A stretch of 64,000 bases of DNA from Candidatus Nezhaarchaeales archaeon (lineage in GTDB: Archaea; Thermoproteota; Methanomethylicia; Nezhaarchaeales; WYZ-LMO8). A model generated the notes under the pieces. The model was not told where the DNA came from, did not search any database, and saw nothing but the letters and a program-made list of their open reading frames with translations. This document shows positions 34,204-59,792 of this stretch, in pieces (the first letter of the stretch is position 1; the number at the start of each line of letters is the position of its first letter). The stretch is taken from assembly GCA_038887515.1 (NCBI GenBank), contig JAWAKK010000001.1:541836-605835 (forward strand). Direction: 5' to 3'. Position numbers and translations under genes: made by a program.

Positions 34204-35133
34204 TCATTTCTTTTCAACTAATGCTATCAGCCTAACTATTGAGCCGTCTCCTCCGGCCCATCTAAGCGGAAGCCCTATCAAGATGCACCTCTTGCCAGTC
34301 ACCTTGTCTATGTCTCCTCCGACGTTCTCATAACCCATGACTCCGTTGGTTAGTAGGATTCTGTGGCAGGGCTCCCAGTATGGGAAGTCCTCTCTAGGAT
34401 CGCGGCCGAACGTCTTCTTGTATTCCTCAACTAGCCACGGAACTACTATGTTCCTCTCGTCAAGCGTTCCAGGACCTTGAGACCATATTTCCCTCGTGTA
34501 CAGCGGGTGATCGAGTGCTTGTGTATCTAGGCCTACAGCCTTCACCCCTCTCTTAACCAACCACCATGCAGCTTCGATGGATAAGCCAGGTGAATAGCAG
34601 AAGTACTTTACGGTGTCGCCCCAGTACTTGTGCCAGCCAGTGTTTATTATTACCATATCGCCGGGCTCTATCGATGGCTCGGCCTTCTCTAGTTCTTCAA
34701 CAGTTATGAACTCCCACTTGCCCTTAGGTATCGATACAACCACACCTTCACCCATGTACCTTTCGACAGGGATTTGATCGGTTGTAGGGAAGCCCTCCTC
34801 GACGTGGACTGGTGAATCTGCATGGGTCGTTACGTGCATGACTGTCGTAATCCTTTGAGTTAATACGCGTGACTTGCTGTGGTAGTGGATTCTATCGAAG
34901 TGGACGTCCTCGAAGTACGGCCAGAGCGGGGCATGGAAGCCGAAGGGCCATGAGAGGTCGTATACCTCGAATTCTCGGCCGAGTAGCCTTAATGGTGGCT
35001 TCTTAAGTATGTCTTCTGGTTTGCCTATCCACTTTGGATCTAACATTCCATGTATGTAAGGCGTGTCTACGGGAAGGTTCTTGATGTACTTAGGGGATTT
35101 CGGTAGGTCCTTTGGGATTTCGATCTTGCTCAT
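34204..35133 (-). CDS. Cyclase/kynurenine-formamidase-family metallohydrolase; candidate dihydrophloroglucinol cyclohydrolase
   Basis: HVTTHADSPVH (HxxTHxD), INTGWH, DTQALDHP, ENVGG, GDGSIVR; specific function inferred from context. Confidence 0.85.
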   Translation of the reverse strand: MSKIEIPKDLPKSPKYIKNLPVDTPYIHGMLDPKWIGKPEDILKKPPLRLLGREFEVYDLSWPFGFHAPLWPYFEDVHFDRIHYHSKSRVLTQRITTVMHVTTHADSPVHVEEGFPTTDQIPVERYMGEGVVVSIPKGKWEFITVEELEKAEPSIEPGDMVIINTGWHKYWGDTVKYFCYSPGLSIEAAWWLVKRGVKAVGLDTQALDHPLYTREIWSQGPGTLDERNIVVPWLVEEYKKTFGRDPREDFPYWEPCHRILLTNGVMGYENVGGDIDKVTGKRCILIGLPLRWAGGDGSIVRLIALVEKK

Positions 35134-35203
35134 AACCTAATCCCCCTCGACCCTCTACGAGGTACTTCCATATTTAAGTTTTAAGCGGCATTTAACTTCA
35201 ACA

Positions 35204-36088
35204 TTAAGCCCAGACGGTTACTCCTCCGTCCACCAGCAGGACTTGTCCAGTTACAAAGTTCGAAGCATCGGAAGCGAAGAATATTATAGCGCCGACGACG
35301 TCGTCGGGAACTGCCCATCTGCCAAGCAGTATGCGTGACTTCATAGTCTGAGATAACTGCGGGTTCTTCGGTATATGTGCTGTGAGCGGGGTCAGCACGA
35401 CCGTAGGCGCTACGGCATTTACTTGGATATTGTACTTGGCCCACTCGGTGGCTAGCTGCCTCGTTAAACCCACGACCGCCGCCTTACTGGTGCAGTAGGC
35501 CACGTAGTTGCCCGGTAGACCAAAGAATGACCTCACGGAGGCTATGTTAATTATCTTGCCCCTCCTCTGCTTTATCATTACCTTGCCTACTTCTCTACAA
35601 GTCAAGAATACTCCCGTAACGTTAGTTTCTATGACTGAGTGCCAGTTGTTGAGTGGATACTCCTCGGCTGGATTTGATGGTATATTTATTCCCGCAAACG
35701 TAATCAGTACATCTATTCTACCGTAAGCGTCCACGACTTGTTGGGCCAATCTCTTAACATCGTCCTCCTTAGTTACGTCAGCCTGAACCGTAGTAGCTTC
35801 TCCTCCAACCTCTCTTACCATGTCTATAGTTTCCTTCAGTTTCTCCAAGTTTCTGCCCACTAGAACTACCTTAGCTCCAAAGTCTGTTAGGGCGAGAGCT
35901 GTAGGTGTACCAAGACCTCCAGCGCCCCCAGTTATAACTGCAACTTTACCCGTCAAGTCGAATAGCTTCTTGTAATACAATTGCTTCTTTTTGACTCTCT
36001 CGGCCAAGAATTGTTGGTAGGCTTCGTACGACTCAGATATCTTAAACCAGTCGACCTTACTCCAACTAAATTCCTCCGCCAAAGCCAT
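35204..36088 (-). CDS. Short-chain dehydrogenase/reductase; candidate phloroglucinol reductase
   Basis: TGGAGGLG, GRN (NADP-type), SVRS..G...Y..YCTSK, NAVAPTV. Confidence 0.85.
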   Translation of the reverse strand: MALAEEFSWSKVDWFKISESYEAYQQFLAERVKKKQLYYKKLFDLTGKVAVITGGAGGLGTPTALALTDFGAKVVLVGRNLEKLKETIDMVREVGGEATTVQADVTKEDDVKRLAQQVVDAYGRIDVLITFAGINIPSNPAEEYPLNNWHSVIETNVTGVFLTCREVGKVMIKQRRGKIINIASVRSFFGLPGNYVAYCTSKAAVVGLTRQLATEWAKYNIQVNAVAPTVVLTPLTAHIPKNPQLSQTMKSRILLGRWAVPDDVVGAIIFFASDASNFVTGQVLLVDGGVTVWA

Positions 36089-36094
36089 ACACCT

Positions 36095-36451
36095 CTAGTC
36101 GGGGTAACTTACTACTACTAGCATTGAGGCCGGCATATTGGTCTCATTAATTATCCTCCGCTTAACGCCGGAGGGAATGTATATTGAGTCCATAGGACCC
36201 AGCGTGTATTTATTGCCCTCCTCATCGATGACTGTTATCGCCCCCGAAAGGACGAAGTAAACCCGTTCAGGTCCTGAATCCATTTCAGCGCCGCCGCCTG
36301 GCAGGAAGTGGGAAAGCCCTACCCAGAACTTTTGGGTGCCAGTAGTATCTCTACTGTGGAGTCTCAAAGCAACCATGTTGAAGTGCTTTGGTGCCTCGTA
36401 TGGCTTTACGTCCTTTAACTCCACCTTCTTAATCTTGCTCATTAATATCAC
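36095..36451 (-). CDS. Cupin-domain protein
   Basis: SHFLPGGGAE...ERVYFVLSG...DSIYIP; first gene of the cupin-SDR-cyclase operon. Confidence 0.85.
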   Translation of the reverse strand: MILMSKIKKVELKDVKPYEAPKHFNMVALRLHSRDTTGTQKFWVGLSHFLPGGGAEMDSGPERVYFVLSGAITVIDEEGNKYTLGPMDSIYIPSGVKRRIINETNMPASMLVVVSYPD

Positions 36452-36731
36452 CCTTCTTCAAGTTAAAGGGGTCCCCTAGAATTTTTAAGTTTTATTTTCC
36501 TCGATAGCTGCGCGCGGAAGACTTTCCATGGTAGGTTTAAGGCCGTAGGCAAAGTCTCCGCGTAAGTATTGAATGTTAGATGCTCAGTAAAGTGGAGATC
36601 ACGCCTTGTAAGTGTACTTTCATCGGGTATGCCAAGGTCCTTAGCTAGTACGCAAAGAAAGGCAATAGAATAATAGGAGAAATTTTTTAACTCTTCACGA
36701 CTTCAAAGGTGTAGCAATTGAGCTAAAAGGG

Positions 36732-37790
36732 GTGGCAAAATTGCCGTTTCATGGCGAATATAAAGACTTAGAGGTAATTGATGAAGGTCAAGGAGAACTT
36801 CTAAACTGGATGGATCCAGAGGACTTTCGGGAGTGGGTGCGCAAAAACAAAGATACGTCGCTTGTCGAAAAAGTCATGGACCCCAAGGAGGCCGTAAAAA
36901 AATTCATCAATGATGGTACTTACATAGCCTTAGGAGGATTCGGCCAAGTTCGAGTACCAATGGCCTTAATATACGAAATTATCAGGCAGGGCAAGAGAAA
37001 CCTAGTAGCTTCAGGGAAGACGTCAACCCACGATCTCGATGTACTGATAGCGGCTGGATGCGTCAGTAAAGTGGAGGCCTCATATCTTTCAGCCGGCCAC
37101 GAGCTAAGAGGGCTCTCGCCCGCAACTCGTAGAGCTGTTGAAAGCGGCCGCGTTAAGGTTGCAGCTGAATGGAGCAATGCAGCTCTTCAGTGGAGGTTTA
37201 AGGCTGCTGCTAACGGGTTACCGTGGATACCATCCTTTATACTCATGGGAACCGACACCTTTAGGCGAAGCGCTGCGAAAATAGTTAGGGATCCATTCAC
37301 CAAAAGGGCCATATGTTTAATACCTGCATGCTTCCCTGACGTTGCCATCATCCACGTACATAGATGTGATGTGTACGGTAACAGCCAGATAGACGGCATA
37401 ACAATCATGGACTGCGAGCTCGCTAGGGCTGCGAAGAGGGTTATTATAACGACTGAGAAGATAATACCTCACGAGAAGATACGCGAAGAGCCATGGCGTA
37501 CAGTAATTCCATTCTTTGTAGTAGATGCAGTCGTCGAAGTGCCGTTCGGTAGCCATCCCTGTAACATGCCGACGCTCTATTACTACGATGAAGAGCAAAT
37601 GGGCGAATACCTAAACCTTACGAGAACTGAGGAGGGCACAAAGGCTTACTTTGAGAAGTATGTCTATAGCGTTTCGGACCATTACGAATATTTGGAGAAG
37701 GTTGGAGGCGTGAAGAAGCTAATGCGATTAATTATGCTTGAACAAGGTAGAATACCGTTTGAGTACCCGTGGGTTGCGGCTAAGAGGTGA
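36732..37790 (+). CDS. gctA: Family I CoA-transferase, glutaconate CoA-transferase-like subunit A
   Basis: ALGGF...PMALIYEIIRQ, PDVAIIHV..CD.YGN, VDAVVEVPFGSHP. Confidence 0.85.
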   Translation: MAKLPFHGEYKDLEVIDEGQGELLNWMDPEDFREWVRKNKDTSLVEKVMDPKEAVKKFINDGTYIALGGFGQVRVPMALIYEIIRQGKRNLVASGKTSTHDLDVLIAAGCVSKVEASYLSAGHELRGLSPATRRAVESGRVKVAAEWSNAALQWRFKAAANGLPWIPSFILMGTDTFRRSAAKIVRDPFTKRAICLIPACFPDVAIIHVHRCDVYGNSQIDGITIMDCELARAAKRVIITTEKIIPHEKIREEPWRTVIPFFVVDAVVEVPFGSHPCNMPTLYYYDEEQMGEYLNLTRTEEGTKAYFEKYVYSVSDHYEYLEKVGGVKKLMRLIMLEQGRIPFEYPWVAAKR

Positions 37791-37794
37791 TGGT

Positions 37795-38574
37795 ATGAGT
37801 GGAGAACTTAAGTATACTAGGATGGAGCAGATGATTATAGCCTCGGCAAAGATGCTAGAGAACGGAAAAATAGTTTTCGTTGGCACCGGGATGCCCCTAC
37901 TAGCAGCTATGGTTGCAAAAGCACTTTACTCTCCAAAGCTAGTGCTCCTTTTCGAAGCTGGAGGTATAGATCCGCTTCCTGGACCAACGTTACCCATTAG
38001 TGTTGGAGACTCCATGACTACATGGAAGGCTAGCGCTGCGTTAAGCATGGATTACGTAATGACGTTGGCACAAGCAGGATTCATAGAGTACGGAATGTTA
38101 GGCGCGGCTCAAATAGACATGTACGGCAACATTAATACGACGGTTATAGGTCCTTGGGAAAGACCCAAAGTAAGGTTTCCCGGTAGCGGAGGAGCTAACG
38201 ATATTGGATCACTTTGTTGGAGAACTATAGTCATAATGAGACAGGATAAGACTAAGTTCGTTGAAAAGCTTGATTTCCTTACAACCCCAGGCTATTTCAA
38301 TGGCCCTGGAGCTAGGGAGAGAAACGGTCTGCCTAGAAACACAGGCCCGTGGAGGGTCGTAACTCAGCTCGGCGTTTACAGCTTCGACGAGAAGGACAAG
38401 AGAATGACGTTGCTAGCGGTATACCCCGGCGTTAGCCTTGAGGAGATAAAGGAGAATAGCGGCTTCCCCATAAAAATACCGGAAAAAATTGAGGTGCTCC
38501 CGGAGCCGACTGCCGAAGAGTTAAGGGTTCTGAGAAAACTAGATCCTTACGGCCTTGTCCTTGGTAAGGGCTAA
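37795..38574 (+). CDS. gctB: Family I CoA-transferase, glutaconate CoA-transferase-like subunit B
   Basis: FVGTGMP, LFEAG (catalytic Glu), AQIDMYGNINTT, GSGGAND; ATG at 37795 with GGTGA RBS. Confidence 0.85.
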   Translation: MSGELKYTRMEQMIIASAKMLENGKIVFVGTGMPLLAAMVAKALYSPKLVLLFEAGGIDPLPGPTLPISVGDSMTTWKASAALSMDYVMTLAQAGFIEYGMLGAAQIDMYGNINTTVIGPWERPKVRFPGSGGANDIGSLCWRTIVIMRQDKTKFVEKLDFLTTPGYFNGPGARERNGLPRNTGPWRVVTQLGVYSFDEKDKRMTLLAVYPGVSLEEIKENSGFPIKIPEKIEVLPEPTAEELRVLRKLDPYGLVLGKG

Positions 38575-38713
38575 CTTAACCTCCTCTACGAGTTTTATTC
38601 TTTTCCCCTTTTATTAGGTAACCCTCTCGTAGGTAAGATACTTATATTACTGGAAGAAGTCTTGAGAAAGGTTAAAAAACTTCAACGTTCGTTGTATGCT
38701 TTGGTGAGCGTTA

Positions 38714-39670
38714 ATGTCTTGGAACTATAATGATATGCAGGAATGGATTAGGAGGGTGAGGAGAGGGGAGCTACCTCCCCTGATAATAACTGTCGCGATA
38801 ACTGGAGGAATACAGGGAAAAGAGGTCACTCCTTACCTTCCTGAAAGCCCCGAAGAGCAAGCTCAACAAGCATACGAAGCGTATAAGGCAGGTGCATCAA
38901 TAGTACACATTCACGTTAGGGATCCGAAGACTGGCTACGCAACTCCGACAGCCGACCCGGCCCAGATAAGGCTCGTGAACAAAAAGGTTAGAGAGCTATG
39001 TCCCGACATAATAATTAACAATTCAACTGGCATAGGCTTATTCACGTCTCTTGAAGAGAGGCTTAAAGTGCTCGAAGCAGATCCCGAAATAGCTTCGCTT
39101 AACGTTGGGCCTGTTGCCTGGAGAACCCTACTTAAGAAGAGGGAGCCCGTGAGGACGCAAGACGTACAGGTAGACCTTACGTGGCCTCCGAACTTCACTT
39201 GGAGGGAGGCGGAAGTATTAGCTAAGAGGATGTTAGAGAAGAACGTAAAGCCTGAGTTCGAAGTCTATCAGCAAGGACACTTCCACGTGGTATATCATCT
39301 CATCGAAAACAACTTAACCAAAGAGCCGCACATCGTTCAACTAGTACTTGGAGTTACGGGTGGAGAGCTACCCCATTATAAGAACCTGATAAACATGGTG
39401 GAGCATCTACCTCCGAATAGCTTTCCGTTCGTAGTTGGAATAGGTCCATTCCAAGCATACCTAACCACTATGGCTATAGTCATGGGCCTTCACGTCAGAG
39501 TGGGCCTCGAAGACAACATATTCTACCGTAAAGGAGAGCTGGCAAAGAGTAACGCCCAATTAGTTGAGCGAGTAGTAAAGATAGCCAACGAGATAGGGAG
39601 ACCCATAGCGACCCCCGATGAAGCTAGAAAGATGCTTGGACTACCTAAAGAACCTAAGCAATACGACTAA
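38714..39670 (+). CDS. Beta-keto acid cleavage enzyme (BKACE/Kce, DUF849); candidate triacetate acetoacetate-lyase
   Basis: AITGG, AGASIVHIHVR, KPEFEVY, HVRVGLEDN, ATPDEAR motifs. Confidence 0.92.
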   Translation: MSWNYNDMQEWIRRVRRGELPPLIITVAITGGIQGKEVTPYLPESPEEQAQQAYEAYKAGASIVHIHVRDPKTGYATPTADPAQIRLVNKKVRELCPDIIINNSTGIGLFTSLEERLKVLEADPEIASLNVGPVAWRTLLKKREPVRTQDVQVDLTWPPNFTWREAEVLAKRMLEKNVKPEFEVYQQGHFHVVYHLIENNLTKEPHIVQLVLGVTGGELPHYKNLINMVEHLPPNSFPFVVGIGPFQAYLTTMAIVMGLHVRVGLEDNIFYRKGELAKSNAQLVERVVKIANEIGRPIATPDEARKMLGLPKEPKQYD

Positions 39671-39749
39671 CGGCTAACAATTTGAAGGCGATAAGCTTAT
39701 GGGGCTTCTACGATAGCGCGTATTAAGGGACTTAATGGAGGGATAATAG

Positions 39750-40712
39750 TTGAATAAAGTTAACATAAGGAAAGTAGCAGTATTGGGAGCCGGAACCATG
39801 GGTCATGGTATAGCTCAAGTTTGTGCTCAGAGCGGTTACGAAACCGTAATGGTAGCTACTAAGCCAGAGAGTCTGGCGAGAGCCCTAAACAATATCAAGA
39901 AGGATCTCGAAGTCTTCGTAAAGAAGAACCTCATAAATCGAGAGGACGTCGACAGAATAGTTTCAAGGATAACTATCGAGTTAAGCGTAGCAAAGGCCGT
40001 GAGAGAGGCAGATTTCGTGATCGAAAGCGTTGTAGAGGACTTGGAGGTTAAGAGAAAGATATTCAAGGAGGTTGACGATAACGCGCCTCCCCACGCGATC
40101 CTGGGCACCAATACGTCCACTATAAGCATAACTGAGCTTGCTAAAGTCACTCGTAGGCCCCAGATGGTCTTAGGGGTGCACTTCTGGAACCCGCCGCACC
40201 TCATGCCATTAGTTGAGATAGTTAAGACCGAGTACACATCGGATGAAGCCGTCGAGGTCGCAAGAGCGTTTATCGAAGATCTAGGAAAAGTCCCAGTTCT
40301 ATGTAAGAAAGAGGCTCCAGGCTACCTTGGAGTTAGGCTCCAGGCAGCCATAGTCCTAGAGGCTACTAGGATGCTTGAAGAAGGCGTAGCCTCAGCTGAA
40401 GATATAGATATAGCGGTTAAGATGACTCTAGGATTGAGGTATCCTCTATTTGGACCACTACAGGTGGTCGATTTAGGAGGTGTAGACGTCTTCTACTACG
40501 CTTACAGCTACTTGTATAACGCAACTAAAGAGGAGCGGTTTAAACCGCCGAAGATCCTTAAAGAGCTTGTTGAAAAGGGCAAGCTCGGAGTAAAGAGCTA
40601 CGAGGGCTTTTACAAGTACACTCCAGAGCAAGTAGAAAAGATAGTAAAGCTCAGAGACGAGTGGTTAATAGACCAACTCATAAGCAGAGGCCTACTAAAA
40701 ATAAAGAAGTAA
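39750..40712 (+). CDS. 3-hydroxyacyl(-CoA) dehydrogenase family; candidate 3-hydroxy-5-oxohexanoate dehydrogenase
   Basis: GAGTMGHGIA, ESVVE, TNTS, HFWNPPHLMPLVE motifs. Confidence 0.9.
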   Translation: MNKVNIRKVAVLGAGTMGHGIAQVCAQSGYETVMVATKPESLARALNNIKKDLEVFVKKNLINREDVDRIVSRITIELSVAKAVREADFVIESVVEDLEVKRKIFKEVDDNAPPHAILGTNTSTISITELAKVTRRPQMVLGVHFWNPPHLMPLVEIVKTEYTSDEAVEVARAFIEDLGKVPVLCKKEAPGYLGVRLQAAIVLEATRMLEEGVASAEDIDIAVKMTLGLRYPLFGPLQVVDLGGVDVFYYAYSYLYNATKEERFKPPKILKELVEKGKLGVKSYEGFYKYTPEQVEKIVKLRDEWLIDQLISRGLLKIKK

Positions 40713-42957: not shown

Positions 42958-43980
42958 ATGGAAATTTATGACTTTGAAGCCCACTTCTATACGAAAGATT
43001 ACGTTAAAGCTCTGCTTAAAAACAAGGCTTATCCAAGATATAAGAAAGATGAGAAGCAAGATATCTATTGGCTTTTATATACGCCTAGCGTCCAAGAACC
43101 CCACGTAGGAGCGTTGCTTGAAAAGCTCCTCAACGTAGAGGAGAAGAGAATACATGATATGAGGGAGGCCGGCATAAAAGTTCAGATCCTAAGTCTCTCG
43201 GCACCTGGATGTGAGCAGCTAGGACCTAAGTTAGGTTCTAGGATGGCTAGGAAGGTCAACGACGAACTCTCGAGGATCGTTGAGAAAAACCCCGACAGAT
43301 TCATTGGGCTCGCAGCCCTCGCACCTCAAAGTCCCCAAGAAGCTGCGGAAGAGCTTGAGAGGGCTGTTAAGGATCTCGGACTTAAGGGTTGGAAGACCCA
43401 CTCCAACATACGTGGTGAGTACCTAGACAACGAGAAGTTCTGGCCTATACTAGAGAGAACTGAGAGGCTTCGTGTACCAATATTTCTGCATCCTACCGTC
43501 CCGAGGATAAAACAACTCGGAGAACCCTACGGGTACGCAATGGCTGGTCCAGCCTTTGGTTTCGTTTTTGAGACTGCTATGTGCTTAATGAGATTAATAC
43601 TGAGCGGCGTCTTCGATAAGTTCCCTAACCTAAAGTTCGTGCTAGGGCACCTTGGAGAGGCCATGCCGTTTCTCATCAACCGTATAGACTTTCCTCGCGT
43701 GAGGCCATGGGTCTACGAAAGCATGGACGTAAAAATATCGAAGAAGCCCAGCGAGTACTTGAAGAATAATGTGTTTATACTTACGAGCGGCGAATTCCCC
43801 GTACCAGCAATATCCTGCGCCATAGAGATAATGGGCTTAGACAGGGTTCTCTTCGGTTCAGACTATCCCTACGAAAACTCTGTAGATGCTGTGAAGCGCA
43901 TTGAAGCTCTACCTCTCTCAAAGGAGGAAAAAGAGAAGATATACTCTCAAAACGCTAAATCGCTCCTAGGTATACGTTGA
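42958..43980 (+). CDS. Amidohydrolase_2-family metal-dependent decarboxylase (hydroxybenzoate/resorcylate decarboxylase-like)
   Basis: DFEAH (ExH), ILSLSAPG, FLHP, GHLGE, GSDYPY. Confidence 0.82.
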   Translation: MEIYDFEAHFYTKDYVKALLKNKAYPRYKKDEKQDIYWLLYTPSVQEPHVGALLEKLLNVEEKRIHDMREAGIKVQILSLSAPGCEQLGPKLGSRMARKVNDELSRIVEKNPDRFIGLAALAPQSPQEAAEELERAVKDLGLKGWKTHSNIRGEYLDNEKFWPILERTERLRVPIFLHPTVPRIKQLGEPYGYAMAGPAFGFVFETAMCLMRLILSGVFDKFPNLKFVLGHLGEAMPFLINRIDFPRVRPWVYESMDVKISKKPSEYLKNNVFILTSGEFPVPAISCAIEIMGLDRVLFGSDYPYENSVDAVKRIEALPLSKEEKEKIYSQNAKSLLGIR

Positions 43981-44061: not shown

Positions 44062-45933
44062 GTGGTAGCATTGGTTTATGGTTATGCTGGTAAGATACTC
44101 TACATAGATCTAACGACCAAAGAAAGCTGGGTCAAAGCTCTCGATGTAGATTACGTCTATCCCGTAATCGGTGGAGCTGGGCTTGGAATAAAGATACTCA
44201 TGGACGAGGTCAACCCGAAAGTTGAACCACTATCCCCTGAGAACAAACTGATCTTTGCTGTAGGTCCACTAACAGGATCCTTAGCCCCCTGTACAAGTAG
44301 GATGGCTGTCGTATCTAAATCACCCTTAACAGGCGCAGTTGGAATGTCGCTTAGTGGCGGGTACTTCCCAGCTGAACTCAAGTTCGCCGGTTATGATGCT
44401 ATCGTAATATCGGGGAAAGCAGATGGACCGTCGTACATATGGATATACGACGATAAAGTGACCATAGGAGATGCATCAGGAATCTGGGGCTTATCGACGA
44501 CCGATACCCAAATAATATTGAGGGAAAAACTGAATCAACCTGAAGCTAAAGTAGCATGTATAGGACCGGCTGGTGAAAGACTAGTACGATACGCATGCAT
44601 AATAAACGAGAGGAGGGCGGCAGGAAGAAAGGGTCTAGGCGCTGTCATGGGTTCTAAGAACCTTAAGGCGATAGCTGTGAGGGGGACGAAAAAAGTTGAA
44701 GTTGCCGACCAAGAGAAGTTCAGAAAAGCTGTCAAGAGGATGTACGACTTAATGAAGGAAAGCCCTGTTCTCTACCCCTCTTTCTCGAAGATGGGGACAC
44801 CTATGACTGTTGAGGTTACGGCCGAGCTTGGAATACTTCCAGCTAAAAACTGGACTGCTACTGGCCTGTTCGCCCCAGTTGAAACTCTTGGTGGAGAGGC
44901 ACAAACTTATTACACCATCACCCGTATGGGTTGCTACAATTGTCCCGTAAGGTGCGGACAGGTAAAGGTTGTTAAAAGCGGTCCCTTCGCCGGCTTTATG
45001 ACTGAAGGGCCTGAGTTCGAGACCACATATAGCCTTGGAACCATGGTCGGTGTCAGCTACCTGCCGGCTGTAATAGCTGCCGACAGGCTATGCGACGAAT
45101 ACGGCTTAGATACCATATCCACTGGAGTATGCATAGCTTTTGCGATGGAGCTCGTCGAAAAAGGTATACTGTCGGCGGATGAGGTCGACGGTATGGACCT
45201 TAGATTCGGCAACTACGAAACCGTGGTAAAGATGATTAGAAAGATAGCCTTCAGAGAAGGGTTTGGAAACATACTTGCCGAGGGGGTTAAGCGTGCCTCA
45301 GAACTCATTGGAAGAGGCTCGGAGAGGTATGCACTTCACGTTAAAGGTCTTGAGCTACCTGGTTATGACGTTAGAGGAGCTAAAGCGCACGGCCTAAGTT
45401 ACGCTACTGCCTATACTGGAGCAGATCACAATAGGGGTTACTCTATACAAGAGATATTCAGTGTCCCAGTACCTTACAAAGTGGATAGGCTAGCGATAGA
45501 AGGTAAAGGAAAGCTTTGCAAGTGGAACCAGGACGTTAGGACTGCCGTCTGCGACTGCATGCCGCTCTGCGTGTTTCCGTTCGACATGGGGCTCGCAGCC
45601 AACGCCTTAGAGCTGATGTCAGAGCTCTACACAGCCTTAACCGGTTTATCCATGACGCCGGAGGAAGTCCAGAAAACTGGAGAAAGAGTCGTCAACATAG
45701 CTAGGGTATTTAACTTTAAGGCTGGCTTTACGAGAGCTGACGACACTCTCCCAGCGAGAGTCATGAAGGAGGGCATACCTGGAGGGGCATCGAAAGGACA
45801 AGTGATAACTCGAGAAGACCTGAATAAGATGCTAGACGAGTATTACGAAGCTCGAGGTTGGGATAAGGAGAAGGGCATACCAACTAAAGAAAAGATGGTT
45901 GAACTTGGCCTACCAATTGAGTGGCTAGCTTGA
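44062..45933 (+). CDS. aor: Tungsten/molybdopterin aldehyde:ferredoxin oxidoreductase family
   Basis: GYAGKIL, KSPLTG, GAVMGSKNLKA, CYNCPVRC, GPEFET, GLDTIS, EYYEARGWD. Confidence 0.94.
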   Translation: MVALVYGYAGKILYIDLTTKESWVKALDVDYVYPVIGGAGLGIKILMDEVNPKVEPLSPENKLIFAVGPLTGSLAPCTSRMAVVSKSPLTGAVGMSLSGGYFPAELKFAGYDAIVISGKADGPSYIWIYDDKVTIGDASGIWGLSTTDTQIILREKLNQPEAKVACIGPAGERLVRYACIINERRAAGRKGLGAVMGSKNLKAIAVRGTKKVEVADQEKFRKAVKRMYDLMKESPVLYPSFSKMGTPMTVEVTAELGILPAKNWTATGLFAPVETLGGEAQTYYTITRMGCYNCPVRCGQVKVVKSGPFAGFMTEGPEFETTYSLGTMVGVSYLPAVIAADRLCDEYGLDTISTGVCIAFAMELVEKGILSADEVDGMDLRFGNYETVVKMIRKIAFREGFGNILAEGVKRASELIGRGSERYALHVKGLELPGYDVRGAKAHGLSYATAYTGADHNRGYSIQEIFSVPVPYKVDRLAIEGKGKLCKWNQDVRTAVCDCMPLCVFPFDMGLAANALELMSELYTALTGLSMTPEEVQKTGERVVNIARVFNFKAGFTRADDTLPARVMKEGIPGGASKGQVITREDLNKMLDEYYEARGWDKEKGIPTKEKMVELGLPIEWLA

Positions 45934-45943: not shown

Positions 45944-46588
45944 CTACTTCTCCTTTTTAATTTCATATATGAACGGTAAGATGACGGCTAGGTTCCTCAT
46001 CTCCTCAACGCAGTGCTGAAACAGTCCCTTAGCCATCTCATAGCTCGCATACTTCGGGTTAAGCCAGAACCTGCTCCTCATCTCGCATCCTACATCCCTG
46101 TCTCTGACGAAGTGAGTCATGAAGCCCGTTTCGACCTCTCCATCTGCTCCTCGAAAGTATATTCGAGCACAGACCGCAGTAGCTTTTGCTTGCTCGAGCT
46201 TAGCTGGATTGAAGTATTGCGAGGGATCCTGAAAGTGTATCCTGAGCTTAGCTACTGGGGGTTTGCCCCCCAGAGTCTCGTCAACTATGTGGCTTGCTCC
46301 AATGTAGCTTCCAGGGCTCCACTTGTCGTCCCACGCACCGTATATGTGGTCAACTGGATGCCAAAGCTTGTAGACCTCAGTATGCTCCTTAGGAGATAGA
46401 CCATAAGCGAACCACCACTCAATCATTCTCCTATTGCAGAGAGGCATTCTCGTAAGCACTGCTACTAAGTAATAGCCATCAGGTAGACGAACGTACCCGC
46501 TCTCTAAAGGCAGGTAGCCGGGCTCTAAAAGTCTACCTATTTCTTCAAGCCGCAACCCAAGACTCTCCAACAATTCATAGACCTCCAC
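45944..46588 (-). CDS. PhlG/phloretin-hydrolase-family C-C hydrolase
   Basis: MIEWWF, YKLWHPVDH, HIVDETLG, MTH...GCEMRSRFW, HCVEEMRNLA..LP (His/Glu/His/Glu metal ligands). Confidence 0.85.
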   Translation of the reverse strand: MEVYELLESLGLRLEEIGRLLEPGYLPLESGYVRLPDGYYLVAVLTRMPLCNRRMIEWWFAYGLSPKEHTEVYKLWHPVDHIYGAWDDKWSPGSYIGASHIVDETLGGKPPVAKLRIHFQDPSQYFNPAKLEQAKATAVCARIYFRGADGEVETGFMTHFVRDRDVGCEMRSRFWLNPKYASYEMAKGLFQHCVEEMRNLAVILPFIYEIKKEK

Positions 46589-46687: not shown

Positions 46688-48046
46688 ATGGTGGAAAAAT
46701 TGGAGAAGAAAGAAGGCGTTGGGTTAACGAAAGTCCAAGCGATAGCGATAGTGGTCGTTGTCGTCGTTATTGTTGCGGGCGTTGCCGCCTACTTCTTAAC
46801 CCTACCTCCACCAGGTCCAGCTGCCCCCGAGTACATAAAGATCGGCTGGCCAGCTCCAATAACTGGGGGCATAGCAGCCTTTGCTGAGACTACGCCTTGG
46901 ATGGTCGAGCAAGTTGAAAAGTATGTTAACAACGTTATGGGCGGCGTTTACTTAGCTGAGTACGGTAAGAAGGTCCCGATAAAGATCATCTTGAGGGATA
47001 TTAAGAGCGATTCAGATGCTGCTGCTTCAGTTGCTGCTGAGCTAATAACTAGAGAGAACGTAGACTTAATGTTGGCCCTATACTCTCCAGCCATGACTAA
47101 CCCGATAAGCGCCCAATGTGAGAGGTACGGAGTCCCATGTATTGTCTCCCAAACTATAATAGTTTCGTGGTTAATGGGAGGCCCCTACACTTGGTCATAT
47201 TGTATTGGGCTAGCAGAACCAGACTACGCTGTACTATTCTTCGACCTCTTCGATACCATTAAAGACAAGACAAATAAAGTTGTTGCTCTGATAAATTCTG
47301 ATGATCCCGACGGTAGAGCTACTGCGGCTGCCTGGAAGGCACAAGCTGAGAAGCGAGGATATACGATAGTGGATCTTGGCCTAATACCCTACGGTACGAA
47401 AGATTTCAGCACGTACGTGGAAGCATGCAAGAAGGCCGGAGCAGACATACTTACAGGCAACATGATTCCCACGGACTTCGCATCATTCTGGAGGCAATGC
47501 AACGAGATGAGTTACAAGCCGAAGCTCGTGGCGATGGCTAGGTCCCTCCTGTTCCCATCGTGGGTAGCTGCTCTAGGCGGCGACTTAGGGAATGGATTAG
47601 TCGGATACATTTGGTGGACGCCCTACCATCCATACGAGTCTTCGTTAACGGGACAGACTCCTCAAGACCTATGCCAAGCTTGGGAGACCTACTCTGGCAA
47701 ACAGTGGACTCCTGTTTTAGGGATGACTCACGCGGTACTTGAAGTTGCGGTTAAAGCGATCGAGAAGGCTGGAAGTCTCGATAAGGCCAAGATAAGGGAT
47801 GCGTTAGCCAACATAGACTTAAACACTATAGTTGGACGCGTCAACTTCAAGGCTCCTCTAACGTCTAGCCAGCAAGCGAGGTATCAAGCATTTGAGAACA
47901 TGATTAAATACAAGGATCACTACGTCGTCGTACCACCAGTCGCAATTCAGTGGGTTAAGGTAGGGGAACGCTGGGATCCAGTAATAATTTACAATTGGGA
48001 GAGTCCAGATATCCCTGTTACAGGTAAGCTTTTCTTACTGAACTGA
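46688..48046 (+). CDS. Membrane-anchored ABC substrate-binding protein, LivJ-like family
   Basis: N-terminal TM anchor, IKIG...PITG..AAF, AIEKAGSLD...IRDAL...TIVG.VNF; no permease or ATPase adjacent. Confidence 0.88.
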   Translation: MVEKLEKKEGVGLTKVQAIAIVVVVVVIVAGVAAYFLTLPPPGPAAPEYIKIGWPAPITGGIAAFAETTPWMVEQVEKYVNNVMGGVYLAEYGKKVPIKIILRDIKSDSDAAASVAAELITRENVDLMLALYSPAMTNPISAQCERYGVPCIVSQTIIVSWLMGGPYTWSYCIGLAEPDYAVLFFDLFDTIKDKTNKVVALINSDDPDGRATAAAWKAQAEKRGYTIVDLGLIPYGTKDFSTYVEACKKAGADILTGNMIPTDFASFWRQCNEMSYKPKLVAMARSLLFPSWVAALGGDLGNGLVGYIWWTPYHPYESSLTGQTPQDLCQAWETYSGKQWTPVLGMTHAVLEVAVKAIEKAGSLDKAKIRDALANIDLNTIVGRVNFKAPLTSSQQARYQAFENMIKYKDHYVVVPPVAIQWVKVGERWDPVIIYNWESPDIPVTGKLFLLN

Positions 48047-52127: not shown

Positions 52128-53369
52128 TTGAGGATAGCTTTCGTCACCATGGAGTACCCTCCCAACGTCTACGGAGGTTTGGGGGTCTACTCTCAGGAGG
52201 TAGCAACGCGCCTAGTTAAGCTAGGCCACGAAGTCCACGTCTTCACAATGAATTCAGGGGAGTTACCGAGAGAGGCCAACGATGGAGGGGTCTACGTTCA
52301 TAGGTTTAAGCCGGTAAACGCTGCCTCCTTACTTAAGGTCGTCGTAAACGAGGAGCTGAATAGGTGGGGGCCCGGCTTTAGGTACTTTAACGACGTCCTG
52401 CTTTACAACGTGGAGGCTGCACTCACAATCGTTAAGCCCTTTGAGGGAGGCGAGGGCTACGATGTCGTAGCAGTCCACGACTGGCTATCGGCGATGGCTG
52501 GGCTCATAGTTAAAGATGAGCTAGGGATACCGTTAATCTTCCACGTGCACTCTACCGAGAAGGGAAGGAACTTTGGTGGAGGATCCGCCACTGTGTCAGC
52601 CTTAGAAGTGTTATGTGCCGATAGGGCGGATTCTATAGTTACGGTCTCTAACGCTATGAGGGACGAGGACTTGATCCCCCAAGGCTTTCCGGCGGGTAAG
52701 ATACGCGTAGTATGGAACGGCGTTGATCCCCACAAGTTTTCACCTTCAAGGGTCTCAGAGCACGCAGTTAAGGAAGTTAAGGATAAGTACGCTACAACTA
52801 ATGGACCCCTAATACTTTTCATCGGTAGGCTCGTTAAGGTCAAGGGTGTAGACAAGCTAATAGAGGCTATGCCGTACGTGGTAAAAGAATACCCGGAAAG
52901 CAGGCTACTTGTGGTAGGTCGGGGGGACCTCTACGACTACCTAGTGCATTTAGCCGGTAAACTCGGCGTAGCTGGCCGCGTTAGCTTCATTGATAAGTTT
53001 CTAGGCGACCAAGAGAAGGTTGTTATCTACGCTGCATGCGATGTAGCTGTCTTCCCCAGCCTGTACGAGCCCTTTGGCATAGTAGCCCTAGAGGCCATGT
53101 CCATGGAGAGGCCCGTCGTCGTCGGCGCTAGGGGTTGTAGTGGTCTTCGTGAAATAGTTGTTCCATCAGGCGCTGGCCAGTGCGGCGTACACGTAAACCC
53201 CTACGACCCCAAAGACATAGCTTGGGGTATAACTGCAGTTCTCTCAAGTCAAGACCGTGGTAGGTGGATGGGCTTGAACGGTAGGAGGAGAGTTCTCGAT
53301 AGCTTTACGTGGGATCATACTGTTTCAAGGACTTTAAAGGTTTACGAGGAAGTCGCTAAGAAAGCTTAG
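52128..53369 (+). CDS. GT4 glycosyltransferase (glycogen synthase-like)
   Basis: EYPP.VYGGLG, HDWL, HSTE.GR, GRL..VKG, PSLYEPFGIVALEAM. Confidence 0.9.
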   Translation: MRIAFVTMEYPPNVYGGLGVYSQEVATRLVKLGHEVHVFTMNSGELPREANDGGVYVHRFKPVNAASLLKVVVNEELNRWGPGFRYFNDVLLYNVEAALTIVKPFEGGEGYDVVAVHDWLSAMAGLIVKDELGIPLIFHVHSTEKGRNFGGGSATVSALEVLCADRADSIVTVSNAMRDEDLIPQGFPAGKIRVVWNGVDPHKFSPSRVSEHAVKEVKDKYATTNGPLILFIGRLVKVKGVDKLIEAMPYVVKEYPESRLLVVGRGDLYDYLVHLAGKLGVAGRVSFIDKFLGDQEKVVIYAACDVAVFPSLYEPFGIVALEAMSMERPVVVGARGCSGLREIVVPSGAGQCGVHVNPYDPKDIAWGITAVLSSQDRGRWMGLNGRRRVLDSFTWDHTVSRTLKVYEEVAKKA

Positions 53370-53591
53370 CTACACGAAGTTGACAGCATTATAAGAATCT
53401 ACCCTATTGTTTATCAGACCGTAGGCTAAGGTCGTCTAGCCAAAGTTCTCTTAATTTAAAATGGTCAACGTCTAGGCGAAACCCATAAATCAGCGGAATC
53501 GCTCGCTCGAACATTCTAGAAGGTGATACCGGCTATAGCATTGAGGACGCGGAACAAGAGTGTGCTTTAAACTTCGCGTATAAAGCTACGT

Positions 53592-53924
53592 TTAAATTAG
53601 CGATACGTCGACTGCTAGTTGCGAGTCAAGTCTCTTCAATTCTAGCTTTTTGAGAGGTCTTTCAGAGATGTTGTTTAACGGCTCGCCGCTCTTAACATTG
53701 AACTTTGCGTAGTGAAAGCCACACGTCAAAGTATGTCCTTCTAACGATCCGAGAAATAGCGGGTAGTCCATGTGAGGACATCGATTATCGTAAGCGTAGA
53801 AGTCGTTTTCAAGTCTTATTATTAGGATTTCGAGGTTCCCCATCTTTACTAGCTTCATCCCGTTCCTAGGCACTTCGTCGACCCTACATAGCTCGACAAG
53901 TTTACCGCTCATACTTCCCTTCAC
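53592..53924 (-). CDS. Rieske-type [2Fe-2S] ferredoxin
   Basis: CPH...CGFH...F...SG. Confidence 0.9.
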   Translation of the reverse strand: MKGSMSGKLVELCRVDEVPRNGMKLVKMGNLEILIIRLENDFYAYDNRCPHMDYPLFLGSLEGHTLTCGFHYAKFNVKSGEPLNNISERPLKKLELKRLDSQLAVDVSLI

Positions 53925-53942
53925 AAAAAAGAGGTTAAGAGT

Positions 53943-54524
53943 TCATTCTATGTGTCTAAACTTCTGCGTGTATGGACCTTCTCCAGGTTTCCTACGTCTA
54001 AAGTGCCCGGAAGGCCTTCCTTCTAGGAGTTCTTGGAACCAAGCCTCGTGCTCTATCTCCTCATGTAAGATCGATAGCGATAGGTCGTATGTTCTCGGAT
54101 CCTTGCCGAAGGTCATGTTGCATATCTCCGTATAAACTCTTACTGCACATCTCTCAGCTTCCAGCAAGACCTTGAGGATGGCCTTTAAATCGCTGGGATC
54201 CGCAGGTAAGTAAGCCGCCGGACAGGCGGCGGCGTCGTGGAGTTCTTTAAGGTCCCTATAAAGTTCGCCTCCAAGCTCATATATGCGTGGCACAAGAGCC
54301 TCGAAATGAAGCCTATCTTCAAGCCTAGCGTCCTCTACGACCTCCTTTATAGCTTCTCCTTCTAGCCCTGTACAATGCATTCTCAAAAGGGTATAATAGT
54401 AGTACGTAGTGAACTCGGCGGCAGCTGCCCTCTTCAACTTATCTATCAGGAGGTCGACGTCGACTCCAGCTTTTTCAACCATTTCCCTTCCAACGTTAGT
54501 AGAATACTTCCTCTCTTTTACCAT
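53943..54524 (-). CDS. dps: DPS-like (DPSL, thioferritin) protein
   Basis: [33 protein letters not shown]. Confidence 0.92.
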
Positions 54525-54867
54525 AACTTTGCATCCCTCAATTTTAAAAACAGACCTTTAATCTATTAAATGTGTATTCAGTTTTTTGTATGTCTTAAAA
54601 AACTAATCATTGTACTATTTCGATTTATAAAAATAAAAGAGTATTACGTAGAATGAGAAGCTATATTATAAGTAAAGTAGCTCTCCACCGTAATAGTAAG
54701 TTGTAATTGGAGAACCGTGAACTCAAGTTATCCTGCCTACCTAAGTAAACTTAAGTAAAAATGCAAAACATTTAGCATTGAAACTTGAGTTGCAGTTGAA
54801 GATGGCTGCAATTCTTAGCCCTTGCACCTACGAAGAGGTCCCCCATAAATGGTAAGCCGGTCCTTTA

Positions 54868-55611
54868 TTACTTAATTATGGAGTCTAGGATCATCATTAT
54901 GATGAAGCCTGCTATTAGTCCGAAAGTCGCTTCCCTACCAAAGCCCTTCCTGTGAATCTCAGGGATCATCTCGTCGACCACCACGAAGATCATGGCCCCA
55001 GCCGCGAACGCTAGGCCCCAAGGCAGTAGAGAATGGGAAGCCGACACTAGTATCAGTCCCAGTAGTCCTCCGAGAGGCTCAACTATGCCTGTAAGGGCCG
55101 CGTAGCCGATGGCTCTTAGAGGGCTATACCCTTCCCGTAAGAGGGGGAGCGCTACTGCTAGCCCTTCAGGTAAGTTCTGTAGCCCTATAGCCATAGCGAT
55201 GACTAGCCCGGATTCCACGTTCCCCGTGCCGAAGCTCACGCCTACAGCCAATCCCTCAGGGAAGTTGTGTATCGTTATGGCTATGGTTAGCAACCATACG
55301 TGCGATAGCTTTGACGGCGGCCCCTCAGCACCGGCTACTGGATGGAAGTGAGGGATTAAGCGGTCTATGGCGTGAAGTGCCAGAGCGCCTACTCCGAGAC
55401 CTGCAGCCGATATTAGTGATCCGCCTAACTCGACGGCCGGCACCAATAGGCTGAAGGTGGATGCGGCCAGCATAATTCCAGCAGCGAGCCCTAGAAGGAT
55501 GTCTAGTAAGCTTTCCGAAACCTCCTTTACAAAGAGTACCGGTAGCGCCCCAGCGCCCGTGGCTAGGCCAGCTACTAAGCTGGCCGTGAATCCTATAAGT
55601 ATTGGGTCCAT
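54868..55611 (-). CDS. zupT: ZIP-family (ZupT/GufA) metal transporter
   Basis: HNFPEGLAVG, QNLPEGLAV, AAGAMIFVVVDEMIPE. Confidence 0.93.
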   Translation of the reverse strand: MDPILIGFTASLVAGLATGAGALPVLFVKEVSESLLDILLGLAAGIMLAASTFSLLVPAVELGGSLISAAGLGVGALALHAIDRLIPHFHPVAGAEGPPSKLSHVWLLTIAITIHNFPEGLAVGVSFGTGNVESGLVIAMAIGLQNLPEGLAVALPLLREGYSPLRAIGYAALTGIVEPLGGLLGLILVSASHSLLPWGLAFAAGAMIFVVVDEMIPEIHRKGFGREATFGLIAGFIIMMILDSIIK

Positions 55612-55656
55612 CGGTACCGCTCATCTCGTACCGTATTTCGATAATCCCTAACTCAT

Positions 55657-56859
55657 TTAGCGTAGCCCAAGTCTAGGCTTCCAGGAGCTAGCGGAATATT
55701 CCCGTAAGACTTGTTGGTATACCTTTAAGGTCTTCTCCCCTATAGCGTCCCAAGAGTAAGCTTCTTGCGTGCTCCTAGCGCCGTTCTCGCCCATCCTCCT
55801 CGCCACGTCTTGGTTATCGATCAAGTACTCAATCGCTGAGCTCAGTGCAAGTGCATCGCCTGCAGGTACTTTTAACCCATTGAAGCCGTTAACAACTATC
55901 TCCGACAAGCCTCCAACGTCTGAAACTATGACGGGCTTTCCGGCCGACATGGCCTCTAGGGCTACTATGCCAAAGGGCTCGTACAGGCTGGGGAAGACAG
56001 CTACATCACTTATCCTGTACAACCTCATGAGTTCGAGGTCCTCGACGAAGCCAGTAAAATAGAATTTATGTCTGAACCCAGTCCTATCGACCTTATCCAT
56101 AAGCTCCTTGCGCATTGGCCCTTCACCCACAACAATTACCTTTAAGTCCTGTCTCTTCGATAGTAGCCTTAGTGCCGCTTCTACCAGTACGTGAGGCCCC
56201 TTTTCGTACGTCATCCTCCCCACGAAAAGTACTATCTTCTCCCAGTCCTCAGCGTAGTTCCTCCTTAACTCTTGGAGGCTTACGAAATCCTGCATACGTA
56301 TAGATTCAACCCCGTTGGGTATCACGATGATTTTATCGTCCGGTACGCCTAACGACCTCCTCAGCTCGTCCTTCATGTAGTTGCTGCACACTATCACCTT
56401 CCAGCTTTCGTAAGTTAGCCACCACTCGACTTCGTGGATGTGTCGTTGCAACACGTCCTGTATTAGCCCGCCCCGCCTACCGTACTCGGTCGAGTGCACA
56501 GTCGATATAAGCGGCTTCCTAAGTAAGTGCTTAAGTGTAATGCCAGCCGTCGCCGTCAACCAATCGTGAACGTGAACTACAGAGAAGTCATCTTCCTCTT
56601 CGAGGGCGGCCTCTACCATGTTTAAGTTGAACTGGTGGACCCACGACGGAAAGTCGCTCGATTGGAATCCGCAGCTCGTGACCCTAATGACCTTCAGGTT
56701 CTTCTCCTGCTCTATTGTTGGAACCTCAGGATAATCGAGTGTTATGACGGTTACGCTTACATCTCTACGAGCTAGGGTTCTTGAAAGCCAGTAAACGTGG
56801 CGGGCTAGTCCACCTATAATTCTAGGCGGGTACTCCCAGCTAAGCATTAAGACCCTCAT
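55657..56859 (-). CDS. GT4 glycosyltransferase (glycogen synthase-like)
   Basis: WEYPPRIIGGLARHV, HDWL, HSTEYGR, PSLYEPFGIVALEAM. Confidence 0.9.
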   Translation of the reverse strand: MRVLMLSWEYPPRIIGGLARHVYWLSRTLARRDVSVTVITLDYPEVPTIEQEKNLKVIRVTSCGFQSSDFPSWVHQFNLNMVEAALEEEDDFSVVHVHDWLTATAGITLKHLLRKPLISTVHSTEYGRRGGLIQDVLQRHIHEVEWWLTYESWKVIVCSNYMKDELRRSLGVPDDKIIVIPNGVESIRMQDFVSLQELRRNYAEDWEKIVLFVGRMTYEKGPHVLVEAALRLLSKRQDLKVIVVGEGPMRKELMDKVDRTGFRHKFYFTGFVEDLELMRLYRISDVAVFPSLYEPFGIVALEAMSAGKPVIVSDVGGLSEIVVNGFNGLKVPAGDALALSSAIEYLIDNQDVARRMGENGARSTQEAYSWDAIGEKTLKVYQQVLREYSASSWKPRLGLR

Positions 56860-57440: not shown

Positions 57441-57457
57441 CAGCGTGCACCCGCCTG

Positions 57458-57703
57458 TTAACTACTTATGGAGAGAGCAGAGATGATCCCCCTGTAGGTT
57501 AGGTAGAATCGACCGCCCTCCTCATTAACGTAGCCGAGCTCCTTACAGCACTTTAAGAGCTCGTTTACTTCGTTCTCGTTCATCATCTTGGAGTACTTCG
57601 CGATTTCGCTTATGCCGACGGCCGTTTCGTCGTTTATTGCCGATAAAAAGTACATGACCGATAAGACCTTATGTATCCTAGATATTAATTCGCACCCGTT
57701 CAT
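57458..57703 (-). CDS. Small winged-helix protein
   Basis: ISEIAK...EVNELL..CKELGYV.E.GGRFYLT.RG; ATG 2 bp after the debranching-enzyme stop. Confidence 0.7.
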   Translation of the reverse strand: MNGCELISRIHKVLSVMYFLSAINDETAVGISEIAKYSKMMNENEVNELLKCCKELGYVNEEGGRFYLTYRGIISALSISS

Positions 57704-57705
57704 AA

Positions 57706-59766: not shown

Positions 59767-59792
59767 CTACGAAAATATAAGCATTAAGGGGT

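Follow-up and report, generated by a model that had tools for sequence, protein, structure and literature searches.

A candidate archaeal version of the anaerobic phloroglucinol pathway in a Nezhaarchaeales genome

The genome of Candidatus Nezhaarchaeales archaeon (assembly GCA_038887515.1) carries a compact locus of seven genes, arranged in two divergent operons, whose products belong to the enzyme families of anaerobic phloroglucinol degradation. The locus lies in a stretch of 64,000 nucleotides of contig JAWAKK010000001.1 (positions 541,836 to 605,835, forward strand), called the window from here on, in which all positions are numbered. The seven open reading frames (ORFs), at 34204-40712, are all intact, with no internal stops, and their coordinates and strands are as described in a first-pass annotation made from the sequence alone. 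The gene content and the divergent strands proposed there are borne out by the ORF list and by Pfam (E-values of 4e-12 to 6e-87). The features of the locus are:

34204..35133, minus strand: hydrolase of the cyclase family, 309 aa, candidate enzyme like dihydrophloroglucinol cyclohydrolase (DPGC) (PF04199, E 2e-34)
35204..36088, minus strand: short-chain dehydrogenase/reductase (SDR), NADPH-type, candidate phloroglucinol reductase (PGR), archaeal 'class C' (adh_short_C2, E 1e-63)
36095..36451, minus strand: small cupin, 118 aa (Cupin_2, E 4e-12)
36452..36731, no strand: divergent intergenic region between both operons, 280 bp (read from the sequence)
36732..37790, plus strand: CoA-transferase subunit A, family I (PF01144, E 1.5e-37)
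37738..38574, plus strand: CoA-transferase subunit B (PF01144, E 7.5e-33)
38714..39670, plus strand: beta-keto acid cleavage enzyme (BKACE), candidate triacetate (3,5-dioxohexanoate) acetoacetate-lyase (TAL), archaeal subclass (PF05853, E 6e-87)
39750..40712, plus strand: 3-hydroxyacyl-CoA-dehydrogenase-like protein, candidate (S)-3-hydroxy-5-oxohexanoate dehydrogenase (TfD-like) (PF02737 and PF00725)

The 280-bp spacer contains A/T-rich, putative TATA-like boxes ~30-50 bp upstream of the first start codon of each operon, and its cupin-proximal part is 82% identical in a genome of the same genus. The listed TTG start of CoA-transferase subunit B results in a 53-nt overlap with subunit A; an alternative in-frame ATG is found at 37795, 4 nt past the stop of subunit A. 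No island signature was seen in the base composition, the GC content in 2-kb segments being 0.46-0.48 in the cluster, 0.44-0.45 in the two segments before it and 0.45-0.49 after it.

The reference for this locus is the route of Clostridium scatologenes. According to the part of the text of Zhou et al. (mBio 2023, PMC10470551) that was available, PGR is an SDR, DPGC is a Mn2+ enzyme of the cyclase family, TfD is a homologue of 3-hydroxyacyl-CoA dehydrogenase acting on the free acid, and TAL is a BKACE; the CoA-transferase CtfAB is a cluster partner and acts, with a thiolase, after TAL. The four enzyme families given in the first-pass annotation are the same in this account. They are common to both clusters, as is the CtfAB-type CoA-transferase. 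The seven genes, together with a nearby gene of the phloretin/2,4-diacetylphloroglucinol (DAPG) hydrolase family and one for a solute-binding protein, probably encode an archaeal version of this pathway, to judge from the sequences. The phloroglucinol assignment, proposed in the first pass, is supported mainly by context: a Trp/Tyr pair of the cyclase, the synteny of its partners and the DAPG-hydrolase-family gene 5 kb away. The novelty first claimed was overstated, as the available text of PMC10470551 already places the same cluster in sulfate-reducing archaea, genus Archaeoglobus. This removes most of the claim, and the window locus extends a known picture.

The cyclase has an N-terminal extension of ~50 aa that is conserved among its archaeal homologues. 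The latter, from A. fulgidus, Bathyarchaeia, Caldarchaeum and Freyarchaeota, are 72-85% identical to the window protein (A. fulgidus, 72%), and the bacterial cluster cyclases of ~250 aa are 54-65% identical. The His/Asp metal site of the DPGC type, H100/H104/D106/H110, is invariant in the 82 homologues aligned. In DPGC, Trp20 and Tyr22 replace the substrate residues of isatin hydrolase (PMC10470551, text available in part), and this pair is kept in the window cyclase: W71 is invariant in the same alignment, and Y73 is present in 19 of the 22 archaeal rows and in all 60 bacterial ones. The correspondence was made through proxy cyclases, since W71 and Y73 are residues 20 and 22 in 17 of the 20 printed bacterial cluster cyclases (248-254 aa) and in 8/8 of the Clostridium type (311-316 aa), so these columns carry the numbering given for the C. 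scatologenes enzyme (CsDPGC). Kynurenine formamidase was ruled out as the identity of the cyclase: the KynB model TIGR03035 gives 58.8 bits, far under its cut-off of 223. Solved kynurenine formamidases and isatin hydrolases do not exceed 35 bits (best kynurenine formamidase, 32.7 bits).

Two further forms of the family were encountered. Bacterial proteins of 476-541 aa (e.g., in Pseudolabrys), 44-51% identical over 81-91% of the cyclase, are long or fused versions. A second, divergent paralogue (50-57% identity) is found in Bathyarchaeia/Nitrososphaerota metagenome-assembled genomes (MAGs) with an SDR of its own, of the class D mentioned below (loci L024, L029, L031, L053, L065 and L013, the last at 8046-9679); it may belong to a related pathway with another substrate.

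The SDR possesses the catalytic residues N156, S184, Y198 and K202, plus G78-R79-N80 after strand 2. Both features looked for in a PGR, the Ser-Tyr-Lys triad and an Arg-Asn/Ser pair for the 2'-phosphate of NADPH, are present. The NADPH motif of PGR is given as TR(S/N) in the available text of PMC10470551, and the cluster SDRs of class A have T-G-R-N/T at the columns of G78-R79-N80. The longer motif that the first-pass annotation had likened to phloroglucinol reductases is present as S184-x-R186-S187-x-x-G190...Y198-C-T-S-K202...P228-T-V; the residues hold, the spacing is one residue off the pattern given there. They align with those of PDB entry 5G4K, as seen through a homologue from Clostridium nigeriense.

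Four classes of cluster SDRs can be told apart by pairwise identity: A (31 members in the class alignment), B (19), the archaeal C (6, including that of the window) and D, which adjoins the divergent cyclase paralogues. In a 32-sequence alignment of cluster SDRs, there is no variation at S184, R186 and Y198 and hardly any at Y195, S201 and T233. G190, W216 and R257 are conserved across classes A, B and C, and the lid positions 231, 232 and 238 vary between classes. The window SDR shares 64-66% identity with its counterparts in the Bathyarchaeia and Archaeoglobus clusters. Class A SDRs match 5G4K far above all else (252 bits for that of locus L021, 348 bits for the C. nigeriense cluster SDR); we take this entry (also 5G4L) to be the Clostridium phloroglucinol reductase, which a literature search did not confirm. 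A member of class B reaches 206 bits with 1VL8 and 160 bits with 5G4K. When mapped onto the cyclase tree, SDRs of classes A and B are interspersed (12 and 9 changes), which suggests that these two classes are interchangeable.

A careful SDR tree was built from 42 rows with a small outgroup, made up of three E. coli enzymes (FabG, KduD and IdnO, a gluconate 5-dehydrogenase) and two further, unrelated SDRs and not including 1VL8. All cyclase-linked SDRs, including the 5G4K-like class, stand on one side of a 100/97 branch, with the whole outgroup on the opposite side, and forcing class C into one group with IdnO and KduD was rejected (approximately unbiased test, p-AU 0.025). In NCBIfam, the window SDR scores 255 bits on NF006070 (cut-off 279) and 225-236 bits on the KduD models (cut-offs 339-369). 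With all of these scores below their cut-offs and that clade rejected, gluconate 5-dehydrogenase and KduD were discarded as identities. The possibility raised in the first-pass annotation, that the SDR and the cyclase group with gluconate dehydrogenases and kynurenine formamidases, is thus not what was found for either.

NCBIfam seemingly holds no model for PGR, DPGC or TfD. The L021 proteins, which lie beside a BKACE that passes the cut-off of NF053538, match generic models only; hence, the NCBIfam names of the SDR and the cyclase are uninformative. Since the 5G4K-like SDR of this locus is itself best named 'gluconate 5-dehydrogenase', that name carries no weight. Structural comparison of the SDR model (pLDDT 91.7) with the PDB by Foldseek was uninformative for specificity: FabG, glucose and gluconate dehydrogenases were indistinguishable, and 5G4K was absent among the 50 matches listed. 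A tblastn search with the window SDR (E 1e-10) across the 1.29-Mb genome returned its own gene as the only match, which suggests that this archaeon lacks a second close SDR of the classical kind.

For the BKACE, the relevant NCBIfam model is NF053538, 3,5-dioxohexanoate:acetyl-CoA acetone transferase. Among cyclase clusters, 27 BKACE ORFs were found and 26 scanned, one truncated ORF being left out. NF053538 is the best model for 19 of these, one at 513 bits (above the cut-off of 430) and 18 at 383-424 bits; five of ~275 aa score best on the model for KCE (289-340 bits), and two archaeal ones resemble the window BKACE. As far as the text of PMC10470551 was available, KCE binds a 5-amino group through Glu14, and the C. 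scatologenes TAL (CsTAL) has Trp16 at that position. The column holds Ile in 17 of the 19 NF053538-like proteins, Trp in four of the five of ~275 aa and Glu in none. The window BKACE carries Ile33, a non-acidic replacement as in TAL. It shares with CsTAL the absence of Glu14 and differs from it in the replacing residue (Ile vs. Trp) and in length (~318 aa vs. ~275 aa).

The window BKACE is the only one in its genome. Its best PDB match is 2Y7D (181 bits), and its closest named relatives are from Ca. Nezhaarchaeota WYZ-LMO8 (90%) and a Nezhaarchaeales MAG (84%). Relatives from Bathyarchaeia and Hadesarchaea, 56-68% identical, sit in cyclase clusters; this setting is shared by BKACEs at least 56% identical to that of the window and is absent at 50% identity or less. 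A KCE of the lysine pathway was rejected, on 257 bits against a cut-off of 382 and the replacement of Glu14 by Ile33, and, unlike in the case of KCE, no lysine-fermentation genes adjoin the gene.

Compared with the C. butyricum dehydrogenase HBD (4KUG), the window dehydrogenase has Leu61 in place of Lys56 and Arg230 in place of Asn221. Both contacts to CoA are lost. The same two residues are missing from TfD, which has His143, Ser122 and Asn194 (CsTfD, the C. scatologenes enzyme; PMC10470551, text available in part). Ser117 and His138 of HBD have their equivalents in S123 and H144. All 50 cluster dehydrogenases in the alignment share Arg230, as would suit a substrate with a carboxylate. The CoA-transferase also has counterparts beside related clusters: those of subunit A in an Archaeoglobus MAG (L169) and a Bathyarchaeota MAG (L247) are 68-76% identical, those of subunit B 62-72%, and subunit A homologues are found in three bacterial cyclase loci (46-59% identity).

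The conservation of the grouping was assessed in 80 loci fetched with the alignment of cyclase homologues, 45 of which have 5 kb or more of sequence to either side of the cyclase gene. At most 6 kb away from this gene, these 45 contain a cupin (32 loci), an SDR (34), a dehydrogenase (29) and a BKACE (16), with all four in 13. Such recurrent partners across related loci indicate that the grouping is not due to chance. In archaeal MAGs, where the first-pass annotation had suggested a synteny search, the cluster is present in Bathyarchaeia (L247, L248) and largely so in Archaeoglobus (L169). The two Bathyarchaeia MAGs, from hot springs, are the closest full counterpart: five core genes stand in one row, with identities to the window of 77% for the cyclase, 56% for the dehydrogenase, 66-67% for the BKACE, 64% for the cupin and 65-66% for the SDR. 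L247 has the CoA-transferase as well (A/B, 76/72%). Unlike the two divergent operons of the window, theirs is a single co-directional one. A literature search for phloroglucinol with Bathyarchaeia, Nezhaarchaeota or Caldarchaeales found no paper.

In the Archaeoglobus sp. MAG, one 10.6-kb contig holds the cupin (71%), the SDR (64%), the cyclase (73%) and CoA-transferase A (68%) and B (62%). It differs in gene order and in its dehydrogenase, which is of the bacterial type (36% identity); a BKACE was not detected there with the queries used. This may be the Archaeoglobus locus meant in PMC10470551. Mycobacterium has the SDR, dehydrogenase, cyclase, cupin and BKACE, as in M. persicum (L184), and the cyclases of L184, L186 and L225 are 54-55% identical to that of the window; on the contrary, its SDR is of the bacterial class A and its cupin is only 32% identical. 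For the M. tuberculosis cluster Rv1714-Rv1716, a link to polyphenols has been proposed (PMC5894108, seen in part), and the five core genes of the Mycobacterium loci fit this proposal as well as a remark in the available text of PMC10470551. Finally, a Bacillota locus (L045) combines a class B SDR with an archaeal-type dehydrogenase and an NF053538-like BKACE (416 bits).

Archaea and bacteria alike have the cupin as a conserved companion of the cluster: a homologue (35-71% identity) is found no more than 6 kb from the cyclase in 57 of the 80 loci, and the Clostridium clusters fetched carry one too. The word cupin does not occur in the main text of PMC10470551, as far as that text was available. 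The protein is without the classical His metal ligands, and 16 columns are invariant in an alignment of 35 sequences. A sequence search of the PDB gave weak matches only, and the ESM Atlas generic cupin clusters. Foldseek with the predicted model (pLDDT 93.2) points to TM1459 (TM 0.79-0.81) and to the polyketide cyclase RemF (TM 0.82-0.83, 21-22% identity), which would be a lead rather than evidence. NF050094, a model that names an M. tuberculosis beta-D-galactosidase, reaches 78 bits (cut-off 175); we assume that the protein behind it is Rv1717.

A Pfam scan of 54 further ORFs of the window revealed the DAPG-hydrolase-family gene and the gene for the solute-binding protein; the amidohydrolase and aldehyde:ferredoxin oxidoreductase genes had come up in the initial Pfam scan that covered the cluster. 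These four features downstream of the cluster are:

42958..43980, plus strand: Amidohydrolase_2 family protein, possible feeder (PF04909, E 1e-44)
44062-45933: aldehyde:ferredoxin oxidoreductase, between the amidohydrolase gene and the DAPG-hydrolase-family gene
45944..46588, minus strand: DAPG/phloretin-hydrolase family protein, 214 aa, candidate feeder releasing phloroglucinol from acylphloroglucinols (PF18089, E 4e-47)
46688..48046, plus strand: solute-binding protein, periplasmic-binding-protein type 6, candidate uptake component (PF13458, E 1e-43)

The DAPG-hydrolase-family gene, ~5 kb downstream of the cluster, scores 161 bits on PF18089 (cut-off 22.7) and 55.8 bits on the PhlG equivalog NF047887 (cut-off 600). 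Among solved structures, phloretin hydrolase 5XE5 comes closest (E 1e-19), compared to which the window protein is ~45 residues shorter N-terminally. Homologues of this hydrolase are present in 10 of the 80 cyclase loci, plus three Clostridium-type or Brevibacillus clusters, those of the solute-binding protein (26-51% identity) in 17 and those of the amidohydrolase (24-53%) in five, and they flank the cluster in a Streptomyces locus in the last case. Homologues of the aldehyde:ferredoxin oxidoreductase are found in two loci only, and its link to the pathway is doubtful.

A few other observations were made in the window. A 97-aa ORF at 48388-48681 matches only the first 52 of the 175 positions of the isochorismatase domain and is probably a gene fragment. 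At 5594-27115, an archaellum and chemotaxis region contains three archaellin-family genes, FlaI/FlaJ/FlaH-like genes (T2SSE, T2SSF, KaiC), CheA, CheW, CheB, CheR and a PAS-MCP receptor, which speaks for a motile archaeon as the host. An AIR-carboxylase-family gene followed by a nickel-insertion gene (PF01969), at 3053-5077, resembles the LarB/LarC-type synthesis of the nickel-pincer cofactor. At 52128-62937, a glycogen-type carbohydrate cluster comprises two GT4/GT5 glycosyltransferases, a GH57 enzyme and a phosphorylase-like protein.

The genome (1.29 Mb, 94% complete) encodes one BKACE, one cyclase and one DAPG hydrolase, together with two thiolases and a protein of the ADP-forming acetyl-CoA synthetase type; no McrA was found in it. 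No cyclase orthologue was found in 30 relatives, the best match having 43-44% identity over part of the cyclase. The DAPG_hydrolase family is present in one of 31 related genomes, that of the window, and in none of 14 control genomes; both genes are thus co-distributed, only the window genome among the 31 having the two. In the same-genus genome G005, the genes flanking the cluster are neighbours, 568 bp apart as against 6.9 kb in the window. An intact BKACE and dehydrogenase (78% nt identity) are located elsewhere in that genome, without SDR or cyclase. Next to them lies a cupin pseudogene (L087, 12723-13000), frameshifted into pieces of 68 aa and 39 aa and with its C terminus cut short. This remnant beside the BKACE indicates that the divergent cupin/BKACE arrangement predates both genomes and that G005 lost the ring-opening half.

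Several results weigh against the assignment to phloroglucinol. No enzyme of the cluster passes a curated equivalog cut-off: the BKACE stays at 257 bits on the KCE model NF052387 and at 213 bits on NF053538. The characterised DPGC, probably represented by the Clostridium-type cyclases of 311-316 aa, would be only ~36-38% identical to the window cyclase, judged by these proxies, and the latter is of another subtype. The SDR is of class C and not of the 5G4K-like class A found in Clostridium: its lid has V231/L232/H238 where class A has F/R/W (each in 30/31), and its best solved relative is the 'gluconate 5-dehydrogenase' 1VL8 of T. maritima (189 bits; 5G4K, 133 bits). Monophyly of classes A, B and C alone was not recovered in the careful tree, nor was it rejected (p-AU 0.339). 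The dehydrogenase lacks the complete His-Ser-Asn set of TfD, having Val at HBD Asn188/CsTfD Asn194; this Val is shared by the archaeal class and one Bacillota locus, vs. Asn in 43 bacterial-type rows. At a position with Glu in at least 90% of the 35 homologues, the window cupin carries Val (in G-V-K-R), and it may be an inactive or altered copy. Moreover, the persistence of BKACE and dehydrogenase in G005 shows that this pair can outlive the ring-opening half. The SDR, BKACE and dehydrogenase are, by their sequences, divergent archaeal subclasses.

This divergence could mean that the same chemistry is applied to another substrate, a substituted phloroglucinol or cyclic 1,3-dione (e.g., methyl- or acyl-phloroglucinol), to which the archaeal subclasses are adapted. 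The SDR differs from class A at lid positions 231, 232, 238 and 258, the BKACE forms a separate subclass under both NCBIfam cut-offs, the dehydrogenase has Val in place of the substrate-recognition Asn, and the adjoining hydrolase and amidohydrolase genes suggest decorated substrates. Nevertheless, the substrate residues of the cyclase are conserved across all classes, class A and B SDRs swap freely among close cyclases, and the mixed set of L045 argues for interchangeable parts of one pathway. Another substrate is therefore considered unlikely. The cluster could also be a decaying remnant on which this archaeon can no longer rely for growth on phenolics, as might be read from G005, which is without SDR and cyclase and has a broken cupin, from the lack of a cyclase orthologue in all 30 relatives and from the Val at the nearly invariant Glu of the cupin. 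Against this stand the seven intact ORFs, their retained catalytic and metal residues and the similar divergence of all seven proteins from the Bathyarchaeia homologues (56-77%, with the cyclase most conserved), which gives no sign of selective decay; of the explanations weighed here, it is the one given least credence.

The two operons might also be unrelated modules. The plus-strand one would then convert a generic 3-hydroxy acid to a beta-keto acid and on to acetoacetate and an acyl-CoA, in the manner established for BKACEs (carnitine, lysine and others), and the minus-strand one would serve, e.g., sugar-acid or amide metabolism. The best NCBIfam names are indeed those of gluconate and KduD dehydrogenases for the SDR and of the lysine-pathway KCE for the BKACE, although the gluconate name, also falling on the 5G4K-like SDR of L021, is weightless, and the Glu14 of KCE is absent. 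In G005, BKACE and dehydrogenase lie beside saccharopine-dehydrogenase-like genes, without cyclase or SDR, but the frameshifted cupin at the same divergent position speaks for loss. Furthermore, of 80 loci obtained with the window BKACE as the query, 53 lack all the partners; all the BKACEs of these 53 are at most 50% identical to that of the window, while among the eight loci from outside Nezhaarchaeota at 56% or more (L246-L253), six carry partners and a seventh is on a contig with a cyclase-cupin-SDR set. Two separate modules are thus very improbable.

The phloroglucinol pathway would proceed as follows. An acylphloroglucinol or phloretin-type compound would be hydrolysed to phloroglucinol, which the SDR would reduce with NADPH to dihydrophloroglucinol. 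The metal-dependent enzyme of the cyclase family would open the ring by a hydrolytic retro-Claisen reaction, yielding 3-hydroxy-5-oxohexanoate; this free acid would be oxidised by the 3HCDH-like enzyme to 3,5-dioxohexanoate (triacetate). From triacetate and acetyl-CoA, the BKACE would produce acetoacetate and acetoacetyl-CoA, and the CoA-transferase would activate the acetoacetate. A thiolase and the ADP-forming acetyl-CoA synthetase, encoded elsewhere in the genome, would finally lead to acetate and ATP.

The anaerobic opening of the phloroglucinol ring is the step into which the anoxic mineralisation of flavonoids and tannins is funnelled and, to our knowledge, has so far been shown in bacteria only. 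With its presence beside the cluster in most lineages, Mycobacterium among them, the cupin points to a gap in the four-enzyme scheme as published. Tentatively, and with more doubt than confidence, it can be proposed that this cupin is an unrecognised fifth component of the pathway in Mycobacterium, Clostridium, Bathyarchaeia, Archaeoglobus and the Nezhaarchaeota-like organism, acting for example in the keto-enol tautomerisation of phloroglucinol or dihydrophloroglucinol or in the handling of the triketide acid, and that thermophilic archaea run the pathway with their own subclasses of SDR, BKACE and dehydrogenase, polyphenol carbon thus being an archaeal substrate in geothermal sediments. If the assignment to phloroglucinol is correct, the locus would also point to thermostable versions of a rare C-C hydrolase, and plant phenolics would be a source of carbon and energy for uncultured archaea of hot, anoxic habitats, among them Nezhaarchaeota-like organisms, Bathyarchaeia, Caldarchaeales, Hadarchaeota and Archaeoglobus.

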